Origin: Nitrosopumilus sp.
Lineage (GTDB): Archaea > Thermoproteota > Nitrososphaeria > Nitrososphaerales > Nitrosopumilaceae
Reading direction: 5' to 3'
Length of the DNA: 64,000 nucleotides
NCBI GenBank assembly: GCA_965206745.1
Contig: OZ242220.1
Location: 608,001 to 672,000, forward strand
Positions within the stretch are counted from its first letter, which is position 1; every line of letters starts with the position of its first letter. Below, in pieces: positions 51,535 to 54,696 of the stretch. The notes below the pieces were generated by a model. The model made no database searches, was not told where the DNA came from, and saw only the letters and a list, made by a program, of their open reading frames with translations. The position numbers were made by a program, and so were the translations under genes.

Positions 51535-52533
51535 ATGATGAATGATTCTGCGATAAAGGAATTGCATCCTACAAAATATGTCAAATTGCCTAGTATCAAC
51601 TCTCTGTTGCAAATTTCACTTGGATTAATCCTGCTTGCCATGGTTTCATTTGCCCTAGTTTATGCTGAAACAATTACAGTAGATGTTGAAGGAACTTCAT
51701 ATGATGTTAATTATAATGCGACTGGAGTGGTTATTTCTGACATCGAGGTCGATACTCAATTTGTTGCTCTGATATTATCCGTTGACGTGTCTGAGTCAGG
51801 CGGCATGTTGGATATCGCGTTTGATCGTTCTTTCTTTGATACCACTGTTGACGGACTAGATGAAGAATTTCTTATTCTAGCAGATGGTGATGAACCAAAT
51901 TTTTCAGAAATTATAACTGATCAAAGTAGAACTTTGAGTGTTAAATTACCTGCAGGTACTGAGGAGGTTGAAATAATCGGTTCTACATTTGGTAGTCCTG
52001 CTTCTGTTGATACTCCTGATGTAGATGATGTCGCAGATCAAGCCGCAGCTGATCAGGCAGCCGCAGATCAAGCAGCGGCTGACAAGGCAGCAGCAGACCA
52101 AGCTGCCGCAGCTGATCAGGCAGCGGCAAATCAAGCAGCAGCAGACCAAGCTGTTGCAGACCAAGCTGCCGCCGACAAAGCCGCAGCTGATCAGGCAACA
52201 GCGGACAGAGCTGCTGCCGACAGAGCCGCAGCAGACCAAGCTGCCGCAGATCAAGCAGCAGCAGACCAAGCAATAGCAGACAATGCACGTTTAACAGAAT
52301 GTGGTCCTGGAACAATTCTTGAAGGTGGAGAATGTATTTTAGATCAAAGATGCGGCCCTGGAACCATTTTCAAAGATGGAGCATGTGTACTTGATTCAAC
52401 TTCACAACCCTCTGATTCTTCTCTAAACGGAATGGGCAAAGAATTGGTAATAGGATTTGTTATCGCATTTATAGTAGCAGGAATTGTCGGAGTTGTTTTC
52501 GGTATAATGGCCAAAGCCAGTAAGAGTAGCTAA
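51535..52533 (+). CDS. Membrane-anchored thaumarchaeal surface protein with Ala-rich stalk
   Basis: Signal peptide, PAGTEEVEIIGS domain, ADQAA repeats, two CGPGT motifs, C-terminal TM. Confidence 0.8.
   Translation: MMNDSAIKELHPTKYVKLPSINSLLQISLGLILLAMVSFALVYAETITVDVEGTSYDVNYNATGVVISDIEVDTQFVALILSVDVSESGGMLDIAFDRSFFDTTVDGLDEEFLILADGDEPNFSEIITDQSRTLSVKLPAGTEEVEIIGSTFGSPASVDTPDVDDVADQAAADQAAADQAAADKAAADQAAAADQAAANQAAADQAVADQAAADKAAADQATADRAAADRAAADQAAADQAAADQAIADNARLTECGPGTILEGGECILDQRCGPGTIFKDGACVLDSTSQPSDSSLNGMGKELVIGFVIAFIVAGIVGVVFGIMAKASKSS
52033..52275 (+). repeat. Degenerate 15-bp ADQAA pentapeptide repeats
   Basis: About 16 AD[QKR]AA-type units with synonymous variation. Confidence 0.85.
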
Positions 52534-53045
52534 TCACAAGACAAGTCTTCTGAATTCATATCTTTATCAAAATCAAATCCGGATATCTGAGTTATGGTTG
52601 AATACGGGATGATTCCTAAAATTGGCATATCTGCACGTACAGCCACGATGAGCTGGTTGGGATCAAGCCTGATCGCTCCTCCGTCAAACTCAAAATCCAG
52701 CGTCATGAACAGATGCTGAGCTGCAGATAATGCTTCTGATGAAAATATTCCCTTTTGTATTGCCGATGATAGCGGGTTTATTGTGGATGGTTCTACTGAA
52801 AATGTACCTAAATCATTTCCTTCAAAATATGGAGTAATTTGTAATTTCTCAAAACTGATCCAAAACGGCATTGGATTGCAGAATTCCATCGTTCCATGGT
52901 TTGACATTGTAAAAAAACTGAATTGTCCTGGATTGTCCCATCTGTATTCTAACTGCTGCACTCCAAAGATACTCAGTCCTGAATGCGCAAATGGCAGTAT
53001 GATGAGGATGATTGCAATGATTGTGATGATTGAATGCCTGTTCAT
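52530..53045 (-). CDS. Conserved thaumarchaeal membrane-anchored hypothetical protein
   Basis: N-terminal TM; ILGIIPYS motif; ATGA coupling to the upstream gene. Confidence 0.75.
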   Translation of the reverse strand: MNRHSIITIIAIILIILPFAHSGLSIFGVQQLEYRWDNPGQFSFFTMSNHGTMEFCNPMPFWISFEKLQITPYFEGNDLGTFSVEPSTINPLSSAIQKGIFSSEALSAAQHLFMTLDFEFDGGAIRLDPNQLIVAVRADMPILGIIPYSTITQISGFDFDKDMNSEDLSCD

Positions 53046-53701
53046 ATCTCCCTTTTCATTTCTTCTGGGAATCCGATGATGTTCCTTTCAAGCAAATTAT
53101 TTATGACTTTGGAAAATGTATCGTCTGATATTGCACCCTCCAGCCACCAAATTGCCACTATGGATACCCAATCTGGGATGTCAATTTCGTTCTTGTTGCT
53201 TTCATTAATTTCAAAGGGTATGTCTATTAGTCGTTTATCCACATCCCTTTGAATTGCATCTAAAAGGAATCCGTCTGAAATATATCCTGAAAGCCAACTA
53301 ATCATTATTTGCTTAATTGATCCTGAAAAGCAGATTGAATCTGATTCTACGAGTTCAAACTCTGCCGAATTTCTTGTTCCTGAATATTCCACACCTATGG
53401 TATATTTCCCTAGTGGAAATATTCCTGCCTCAAATGGTATTATTGATGGAATCGGATTTTGTAATTCTGTTATTGCTATTGGAATTGCACTGCTGCTTTT
53501 GCCTGATTCATCTATGATGTGAACTATTGCATGATCCCCTGTAACTTTAGAGACTTGAATTGTATAGAATAATTTTTCACAATAGCTGTACGTTGTTTTT
53601 TCCATTATTATCGACACTGTTGGCTCTGCATGAACTTGAGGCAAAAATGCCATAATTCCGATTACAAAAATTAACGACAATGTGAGCGTTTTGACTTTCA
53701 T
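53042..53701 (-). CDS. Secreted protein with thaumarchaeal IPxW...WW..G.ISD C-terminal repeat domain
   Basis: Signal peptide VHA-E; IPDWVSIVAIWWLEGAISDDTF. Confidence 0.78.
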   Translation of the reverse strand: MKVKTLTLSLIFVIGIMAFLPQVHAEPTVSIIMEKTTYSYCEKLFYTIQVSKVTGDHAIVHIIDESGKSSSAIPIAITELQNPIPSIIPFEAGIFPLGKYTIGVEYSGTRNSAEFELVESDSICFSGSIKQIMISWLSGYISDGFLLDAIQRDVDKRLIDIPFEINESNKNEIDIPDWVSIVAIWWLEGAISDDTFSKVINNLLERNIIGFPEEMKREI

Positions 53702-53790
53702 CTTTTTTAGATCTCTTATCGTTCAATAAAAATCTCAAAAAGCAGGCATTGAGAAATCCTTTTTAATGACTTGAACCTAATTATCTTATC

Positions 53791-54195
53791 GAGTTTTCTG
53801 CGAAAGCAAATTCTTTGGGTGTGAGACTTGTAATCTCCGCTCAAGGACATCTTCATTGATCAGTGTTCTTTGGGTATGATTTATGGCCAGAAAGTCTCTG
53901 ATTATAATTGATGAAAATCTAATTACTTGCAGACTCTATTAATTACAGTATGTCATATTTATGACAACATTATTCTTGAGAAATTCTGTATGGCACAGCA
54001 GTTTATGATGAACTCGGATAATCAACAAGCCAAGCCTCTATCTGAGAGACAGGTGAAACCTATTTTTGTCGACTGTATCACAATTATGGGATTAAGAAAG
54101 GCGCATCTTCAAAATTCCCATAATGTCAATCGTGACACAATCACCAAACGCAGTAATGGCAATTTGATTGAGGCCATCTTTGTAGCATCAAAAAC
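53791..54195 (+). ncRNA. Candidate ~400-nt structured non-coding RNA
   Basis: TATA-like box at ~53761; at least 8 consecutive hairpins with G-U pairs and GAAA tetraloops; no credible ORF. Confidence 0.55.
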
Positions 54196-54240
54196 TGTTT
54201 GAACATTTCAGTTATTAAAGGGGATTTTTCTATTCCTGAT

Positions 54241-54696
54241 ATGCCTAGTTATCAGGATCAAACGTGGATAAGGCTGTGGAAAGAAAATTCCCCTGAAATA
54301 CGTCAACGTGTTGTCGGATGGCGTAAGGAAAATGCAGTTACCCGTATTGACAAGCCAAGTAGATTACAAAGGGCCAGGAGGTTGGGCTACAAGGCAAAAC
54401 AAGGCATCATTGTAGTTAGAATGCGTGTTGGTACCGGTGGTATGAGAAAACAAAGACCCACTGGTGGTAGAAGACCAAAACATCTTGGCGTTACAAGAAT
54501 TAAAGCCGATGATAGTATGAAAACTGTTGCAAATAGAAGGGTTGTTCAAAGGTATCCAAATATGAAACTTTTAGGTTCTTACTTTGTCTATAAGGATGGT
54601 AAACATTATTGGTTTGAAGTTATTTTGGCAGATCCAGATCACCCCCGAATTGCTCAGGATAAAGAATTAACTAAAAGAATTCCTAGAACGGCATAA
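54241..54696 (+). CDS. rpl15e: 50S ribosomal protein L15e
   Basis: RARRLGYKAKQG, YPNMKLLGSY, WFEVILADP; probably leaderless with a TATA at ~54212 (track start 54199). Confidence 0.95.
   Translation: MPSYQDQTWIRLWKENSPEIRQRVVGWRKENAVTRIDKPSRLQRARRLGYKAKQGIIVVRMRVGTGGMRKQRPTGGRRPKHLGVTRIKADDSMKTVANRRVVQRYPNMKLLGSYFVYKDGKHYWFEVILADPDHPRIAQDKELTKRIPRTA

Follow-up and report, generated by a model that had tools for sequence, protein, structure and literature searches.

A putative small RNA gene and an apparent insertion remnant upstream of rpl15e in a Nitrosopumilus genome

In this Nitrosopumilus genome, a 540-nt gap separates up219 (53042-53701, minus strand) from the ribosomal protein gene rpl15e (start codon at 54241), and it raises the question of what occupies positions 53791-54195, which a preliminary description presented as one highly structured RNA of some 400 nt, possibly a very divergent relative of RNase P RNA. 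We analyzed this region within a window of 64,000 nt (G000:C1:608001-672000, where G000 designates the genome carrying the window) and through comparison with related loci. The results make it very probable that the stretch is a composite of two unrelated features, a small non-coding RNA gene and a remnant of inserted DNA with a broken zinc-finger gene (Table 1); that this anatomy is correct and that the first feature is, in addition, a functional RNA is, as a joint claim, reasonably probable.

The composite make-up emerges from the pattern of conservation. Comparison of the intergenic region with 40 relatives by blastn yields matches in 19 of the 24 other genomes of the same genus and in none of the 16 genomes from other families of the order. 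These matches are piecewise: the first 180 nt match at 70-83% identity and the last 37 nt, comprising the rpl15e promoter and start, match too, the middle of the region finds a counterpart in few genomes only, and in several genomes the first piece directly adjoins the rpl15e promoter. Across 49 loci bearing the RNA, the rpl15e start codon follows the end of the RNA match by 32-42 nt in 20, by 81-118 nt in five, by 329-360 nt in four (the window included) and by 814-1193 nt in five; in the other 15, rpl15e falls outside the retrieved locus. In G003 and G021 the gene lies at ~20 and ~25 kb, respectively, and in several more genomes it is on another contig.

Table 1. Features of the up219-rpl15e region, in window coordinates
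Feature	Position	Strand	Evidence or remark
up219, 219-aa protein with N-terminal signal-like hydrophobic stretch	53042..53701	-	ORF
up219 TATA box (aataaaaa as plus strand)	53726..53733	-	24 nt before ATG at 53701
RNA-gene BRE/TATA (tgagaaatcctttttaat)	53750..53767	+	70% identity, fixed distance
Constrained core of putative ncRNA	53788..53860	+	near-invariant 5' end, hairpin P2, U-rich tract
Near-invariant RNA 5' end, 24 nt (AUCGAGUUUUCUGCGRARGCAAA)	53788-53811	+	
P1, weak 5' hairpin	53793..53808	+	two rival registers
P2 hairpin, 13 bp	53812-53826 with 53834-53847	+	
U-rich tract	53848-53857	+	C-interrupted in G000
Variable 3' tail of model match, small hairpin P3 in relatives	53861..53882	+	44% identity, unconstrained
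Left junction: degenerate GATTTACAGTTA copy, then recurrent insert end GAAAGTGGCTATTATTGAC	53878..53912	+	compared with L009, L013, L016, L033, L036, L043, L048, L051
Palindrome tgtcat-N4-atgaca just upstream of zinc-finger gene TATA	53951..53966	.	conserved in 7/7 gene-bearing loci
Truncated zinc-finger gene promoter	53967..53989	+	9-nt deletion removes core of cattaaaatattatt; 7-locus alignment
70-codon ORF, decaying copy of small CCHH zinc-finger protein gene	53990..54202	+	
Right junction repeat (catttcagtta) running to rpl15e TATA (ttattaaa, 54212-54219)	54204..54219	+	
rpl15e (ribosomal protein L15e)	54241..54696	+	Pfam Ribosomal_L15e, E 3.5e-45

Right-aligned upstream sequences of the 49 loci reveal two back-to-back promoter blocks. 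One of them, AATAAAAAT, is near-invariant and belongs to up219, whose TATA box lies so close to the start codon (24 nt) that its mRNA should be leaderless or nearly so. The plus-strand block, GGAATCCTTTTTAA, ends 20-21 nt before the ATCGAG motif in all 49 loci and is followed by a 21-nt unconstrained spacer, with conservation returning exactly at ATCGAG. Archaeal TATA boxes sit ~25 nt before the start site, a geometry that the RNA gene fits, and every one of the 49 loci thus presents the BRE/TATA at fixed distance by which an independent archaeal RNA gene can be recognized. The two TATA-like boxes pointed out in the preliminary description, tttttaat at 53760-53767 and ttattaaa at 54212-54219, are both present. 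Its proposal of an independent plus-strand RNA gene holds with regard to the promoter, ~20 nt upstream, and to the lack of an Rfam family, but the size has to be revised, the constrained part spanning ~73 nt rather than ~400.

This extent follows from the mean pairwise identity of successive segments in the 49 loci, which amounts to 70% in the BRE/TATA, 46% in the spacer between TATA and start, 89% in the first 25 columns of the RNA, 81% in the P2 stems, 70% in the U-rich tract and 44%, about the level of the neutral spacer, in the 3' tail. For reference, the coding sequences of rpl15e and up219 have 82% and 66% identity, respectively, so the RNA 5' end is more constrained than the adjoining ribosomal protein gene. 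In G000 the match to the covariance model R1 is 95 nt long, and the interrupted U tract reads CAUCUUCAUU. No coding frame covers the conserved block, a plus-strand ORF of at least 12 aa starting with ATG being found in just 4 of 49 loci. A minus-strand ORF of 46 aa, which gave tblastn hits, was rejected as a coding explanation, being open (at least 40 aa) in a single locus of the 49. Among sequencing runs recorded as RNA, none contains the stretch. Of four runs compared with it, all consisting of contigs, two are only presumed to be RNA; these have low depth and are uninformative on expression, with one contig spanning 53823-53998 at a depth of 2.6 and further contigs overlapping up219 and rpl15e in part.

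The secondary structure of the conserved block is dominated by P2. The RNAalifold consensus of 20 sequences has two hairpins, P1 of 6 bp at the 5' end and P2 of 13 bp; when 20 sequences are aligned plainly with MAFFT, pairing holds in 91% of cells, compared with 42-61% when the partners are slid by 1-3 columns, and 11 cells are doubly changed, compared with 3.8 +/- 1.7 in shuffles (0/500). In the alignment of 49 sequences (A3), which was fitted to the model and is hence biased towards its structure, P2 is 90% paired with double changes at six pairs. Its pairing drops from 90.0% on the plus strand to 79.6% when read as the reverse complement, many stem changes being A-U to G-U or U-A to U-G, and this loss places the RNA on the plus strand, as the preliminary description had argued from G-U pairs. 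Compensatory and strand-specific changes that keep the pairs, the hallmark of a structured RNA, are therefore found in P2.

For P1 the covariation is equivocal between two registers. Register a (GUUUUC/GRRRRC; in G000, GUUUUC/GAAAGC with loop UGC) is 92.9% paired on the plus strand, falling to 58.2% in the reverse complement, but 21 of the 49 sequences carry a mismatch at its central pair; register b (UGC/GCA around a GNRA-like GGAN; in G000 the loop is GAAA) is 93.7% paired and contains two independent compensated U-A pairs, with C.A mismatches in 9 of 49. P3 is paired in 78% of cells of the model-fitted alignment, but its sequence drifts like neutral DNA. The thermodynamic stability of the RNA is by itself unremarkable: the 95-nt RNA of G000 has a folding z of -1.58, and 12 orthologs range from -3.57 to +1.29, five of them at or below -1.5.

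The distribution of the RNA is restricted. R1 has a single match in its own genome (86.7 bits), no other copy of the RNA 5' motif occurs in G000 at one mismatch or fewer, and searches across the family return matches in 34 of 151 genomes and 6 of 27 genera (g1 8/9, g20 7/7, g33 7/9, g37 2/2, g38 8/9, g30 1/5), leaving 21 genera in which the RNA was not found. Orthologs of up219 are present in 139 of the 151 genomes and 25 of the 27 genera; the unpublished genomes G117, G132 and G133 enter both of these tallies solely as presence/absence rows. Within the same genus, R1 detects no RNA in the complete genomes G002 and G018, and G010 carries it. The RNA is thus dispensable, since it was not found in G002, G018 and 21 of the 27 genera though up219 is present. 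Genus g32 keeps the synteny of up219 and rpl15e with a spacer of 135-195 nt, without the RNA and without a third TATA box, and neither in three of its genomes nor in G018 does the sequence upstream of up219 contain a recognizable distant homolog (best unfiltered score 10.1 bits; reading by eye). The DNA preceding the up219 ortholog of G018 (L078) stands out from the window by its high G+C content.

Outside the family genomes, an exact 16-mer scan of public contigs (596 Gb), in which a few hundred matches are expected by chance, returned at least 118 loci, mostly chance bacterial matches. Scoring 100 of these at least 118 loci with R1 gave 22 matches, two of them weak (L142, 28 bits; L097, 26 bits), and we take the L097 match, in a record titled Methanomethylophilaceae archaeon, to be due to the exact 16-mer alone. 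Among the matches listed, the R1-matching public contigs are titled Nitrosopumilus, Nitrosarchaeum and Ca. Nitrosomaritimum.

Wherever the RNA is found, the RNA gene is back to back with the secreted-protein gene up219: all 49 loci have an ortholog in divergent orientation, ~80 nt from the 5' end of the RNA. No Pfam family matched up219. In several genomes its C-terminal ~110 residues also match portions of proteins that are ~1050-1100 aa long, and by these matches up219 looks like a recurring surface-protein domain. Farther upstream, a plus-strand ORF of 332 aa (51535-52533) has a signal-like N-terminus and a hydrophobic anchor at its C-terminus, separated by a long series of AADQ-like repeats.

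Comparison with catalogued RNAs did not assign the locus to any family. Searching the 64-kb window with Rfam 15 at the gathering score gave no match. At E<=10, the matches in 53650-54300 are at chance level and include no RNase P or SRP model; the best, SNORD52 with 17.9 bits where 45 are required, falls outside the conserved RNA, and at E<=1 no Rfam model matches the RNA in 13 orthologous loci. The suggested kinship with RNase P RNA is refuted by the lack of a RNaseP_arch match at E<=10 and by the existence of a canonical archaeal RNase P RNA (RF00373) elsewhere in the same genome, a check that the preliminary description had itself proposed: it lies ~133 kb away at G000:C1:795045-795323 on the minus strand and scores 184.2 bits (E 2.9e-55), above the gathering threshold of 84 bits that the window fails to reach. 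The gaaagtc string in which an RNase P echo had been seen occupies 53890-53896, inside the insertion junction.

Two other archaeal classes were considered on the 49-sequence alignment. C/D box sRNAs carry C (RUGAUGA) and D (CUGA) boxes near their ends; by eye, the invariant 5' end has no C box, and CUGA arises only via a chance C at a variable column. H/ACA sRNAs are marked by a pseudouridylation pocket inside a hairpin, by a K-turn or K-loop and by an ACA at the 3' end; P2, interrupted by no more than one or two bulged bases, forms an unbroken helix, and the alignment has no conserved ACA after it. The literature searched describes no thaumarchaeal small RNA at this locus, the RNAs named in the accessible parts of PMC5069720 and PMC13475601 being those of RNase P and SRP or belonging to other taxa. 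By its sequence, the RNA is a candidate new family of a known kind, the archaeal small RNAs.

The second feature lies further downstream. The gap between the RNA and the rpl15e TATA box is an insertion hot spot, at which the GATTTACAGTTA repeat flanks inserts ranging from 80 nt to ~20 kb and which 20 of the 49 related loci present as an empty site, with no insert between the RNA and the rpl15e promoter. In loci with extra DNA, the left junction keeps GATTTACAGTTA, continuing into GAAAGTGGCTATTATTGAC in many of them, and the right junction repeats ATTTACAGTTA, running into the rpl15e TATA box; in the window both junctions are degenerate (53878-53912 and 54204-54214). Judged by these junctions, 53878-54214 is an apparent remnant of inserted DNA, bounded by a direct repeat of ~11 nt. 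The ~20-kb insert of G003 carries a tyrosine recombinase gene at its rpl15e end (Phage_integrase, 48.8 bits, E 8.7e-13; 18924-19997 in L211 = G003:C7:1400-21399), and the locus accordingly displays the marks of an att site: repeats at both ends, empty sites in relatives and an integrase in one insert (G003). No recombinase was found among the 23 ORFs scanned in the G021 insert, so the G021 case may instead be a rearrangement. Integrated elements of thaumarchaea have att sites down to 8 bp and lie in intergenic regions in 15 of 68 cases, according to the accessible part of PMC6563490.

Within this remnant, the 70-codon ORF has intact orthologs in seven other loci and in one database protein, containing YFCRLCRxYGIKxRKAHLQNxH. 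Their C-terminal 33 codons have a pS of 0.77 and a pN of 0.12 (21 pairs), with codon-position differences of 164/106/463, a pattern indicating that the family is protein-coding and under purifying selection in the relatives. A profile search of 1.84 billion representatives recovers 31 proteins at E<=0.001, mostly of 52-98 aa, and all 33 aligned family members share C26, C29, H40 and H45, spaced as C-X2-C-X10-H-X4-H. The AlphaFold model of the family (pLDDT 84.5) predicts a beta-hairpin (strands 23-26 and 31-34) followed by a helix (37-44) with the two histidines, giving the ORF family, but not the window copy, the two cysteines and two histidines in a beta-beta-alpha unit that define a zinc finger of this kind. 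No Pfam model exceeds its cut-off in 21 proteins and a PDB sequence search is empty; the top Foldseek rows are C2H2 fingers, all non-significant, the first being 2lvh (E 0.96).

The window copy is degraded by an insertion of two nucleotides at ~54055-54056 and a deletion of five after 54094, which put 13 codons out of frame and so abolish the CxxC knuckle; the original frame still reads ETYFCRLYHNYGIK, and the ORF is open only because the two changes compensate. The C-terminal part of the G000 copy retains a pS of 0.76 and a pN of 0.16 in comparison with the others, so the decay should be recent. In run X3, two contig variants cover 53964-54066 at depths of ~379 and 89 and differ in four letters, which suggests strain-level variation within the decaying ORF.

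This anatomy accounts for the fate of the helices on which the 400-nt RNA had been built. The inverted repeats in question can be read in the sequence, among them tgc-GAAA-gca at 53799-53808, a long hairpin at ~53812-53847, agtct/agact at 53893-53935, tgtcat/atgaca at 53951-53966, attatggga/tcccataat at 54083-54124 and atggc/gccat at 54156-54177, but collectively they amount to no more than chance. On the plus strand, 53791-54195 folds with an MFE of -93.4 kcal/mol, compared with -89.4 +/- 5.6 kcal/mol for 100 dinucleotide shuffles (z -0.70), 23 of which fold as well; the minus strand has a z of -1.49. Only the first two helices lie in conserved sequence, where they are still paired in relatives, and the rest fall outside the RNA: those from 53883 on are in DNA missing from 20 of the 49 loci, and from 53990 on they are in a protein-coding frame. 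The proposed long-range pairs join the conserved RNA to the dispensable insert and for this reason cannot be conserved. The tgtcat/atgaca pair, described as an RNA helix, is a palindrome on the promoter side of the zinc-finger gene and is probably a DNA operator. In place of RNA, 53883-54195 holds the insertion remnant, with its small zinc-finger gene and promoter palindrome.

What remains to be explained is the role of the conserved block itself. It is likely that the block encodes a transcribed, functional RNA, for which we infer a transcription start at ~53788, ~20 nt after the conserved BRE/TATA; the transcript may extend to ~95-100 nt, of which ~73 nt are constrained. U tracts are the kind of site that Sm-like proteins bind, and the U-rich tract would probably serve in termination, in the binding of an Sm-like protein or in both. 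In archaea, U tracts are termination signals, as stated in the accessible part of PMC8716108. The invariant and mostly single-stranded 5' end might form the part that recognizes targets, be they RNA or protein, with the hairpin and U tract conferring stability and termination. It is this anatomy, in which a separate promoter precedes an invariant 5' end, a stable hairpin and a U-rich tract, that leads to the reading as a regulatory small RNA, and a trans-acting regulator, working through base pairing or protein binding, is our best, if tentative, assignment. The full proposal, in which an uncatalogued small RNA family of Nitrosopumilus-like ammonia oxidisers would act as a trans regulator, possibly dependent on an Sm-like protein, and in which the end of its gene would double, like tRNA genes, as an attachment site for integrating elements, is a possibility that we put forward with some doubt.

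Several features of the RNA would suit a protein-binding role instead, as part of a lineage-specific RNP or as a decoy for an RNA-binding protein, with the 5' end and hairpin serving as the protein site. A stretch of 17-24 nt that is near-invariant over six genera fits a protein-binding site or a fixed partner better than it does a seed that evolves, and the U-rich single strand between two hairpins points in the same direction. A scan of the RNA 5' 25 nt with RNAduplex on both strands of the genome also yields no outlier target: the best non-self duplex (-24.9 kcal/mol) falls within a continuum of 1759 sites at or below -17, and the genes under the best sites have no pattern. Yet K-turn, C/D and H/ACA boxes are not conserved in the alignment read by eye, and the absence of the RNA from most genera of the family would be odd for a core RNP, making this alternative an unlikely one.

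The proximity of rpl15e invites a further interpretation, that of a cis-acting leader or attenuator, whereby read-through from the TATA box at 53760 into the downstream gene (ancestrally rpl15e) would be adjusted by the hairpin and U tract. The terminator-like succession of hairpin and Us, and the 20 of 49 loci in which rpl15e begins 32-42 nt past the model match, agree with such a role. Against it, rpl15e keeps its own TATA box ~25 nt before the start codon, in a promoter block retained even in the RNA-less genus g32; the RNA is unchanged where rpl15e has moved 0.8 to ~25 kb away or to another contig; and the stretch from the U tract to rpl15e is unconstrained (44%). With a promoter of its own for rpl15e and persistence of the RNA after rpl15e has left, a leader becomes distinctly improbable.

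Still less probable is that no functional RNA exists and that the block is a DNA-level control of the divergent up219 promoter region. Such control would explain why the block is tied to up219 at a fixed distance of ~80 nt in 49 of 49 loci, but not why substitutions keep G-U and A-U pairing on the plus strand only, why conservation begins, past an unconstrained spacer, where a transcript from the conserved TATA box should start, or why up219 orthologs in 19 other genera lack the block. The single structured RNA of ~400 nt, possibly a very divergent RNase P-like molecule, has many local inverted repeats to recommend it and is scarcely credible in view of its chance-level folding, the canonical RNase P RNA elsewhere, the absence of 53883-54205 from 20 of 49 related loci and the evolution of 53990-54202 as coding sequence.

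These results bear on several questions. Almost nothing is known of the regulatory RNAs of ammonia-oxidising archaea, which are among the most abundant microbes of the ocean, and this RNA constitutes a clean candidate, being single-copy, sharply bounded in its constraint, equipped with its own promoter and, by record titles, found in several genera with cultured members. Mobile elements of thaumarchaea that integrate at intergenic sites may in some cases have done so next to unannotated RNA genes. The locus also illustrates how tempting it is to over-read local hairpins, here as a 400-nt RNase P-like RNA, a reading that is now corrected.

Set beside known systems, the RNA has just its non-coding nature in common with archaeal RNase P RNA (RF00373), from which it differs in its constrained length of ~73 nt and in the lack of a model match at E<=10. 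The insertion site resembles those of thaumarchaeal integrated elements at tRNA and intergenic sites, as far as the accessible part of PMC6563490 describes them, in its short direct repeat (here ~11 nt), in the position of the insert on the 3' side of a small RNA gene and in the tyrosine recombinase at one insert end, here in G003. It differs from the tRNA attachment sites of the same account in that the neighbor is not a tRNA and the repeat follows the RNA instead of being part of it, and from the elements themselves in that most inserts here are small remnants without an integrase. The ORF family is akin to small C2H2-type fingers such as AFV1p06 of an archaeal virus (PDB 2lvh) in its invariant two cysteines and two histidines and its predicted beta-hairpin and helix, and is set apart by the spacing C-X2-C-X10-H-X4-H and by a window copy that lacks the first cysteine. 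Trans-acting small regulatory RNAs of archaea are exemplified by those of Methanosarcina and Haloferax. The locus RNA, recognized here from sequence, has no sequence or model similarity to any catalogued family; like them, it would be a short, lineage-restricted intergenic gene with its own BRE/TATA, combining a conserved single-stranded segment, a hairpin and a U-rich end.
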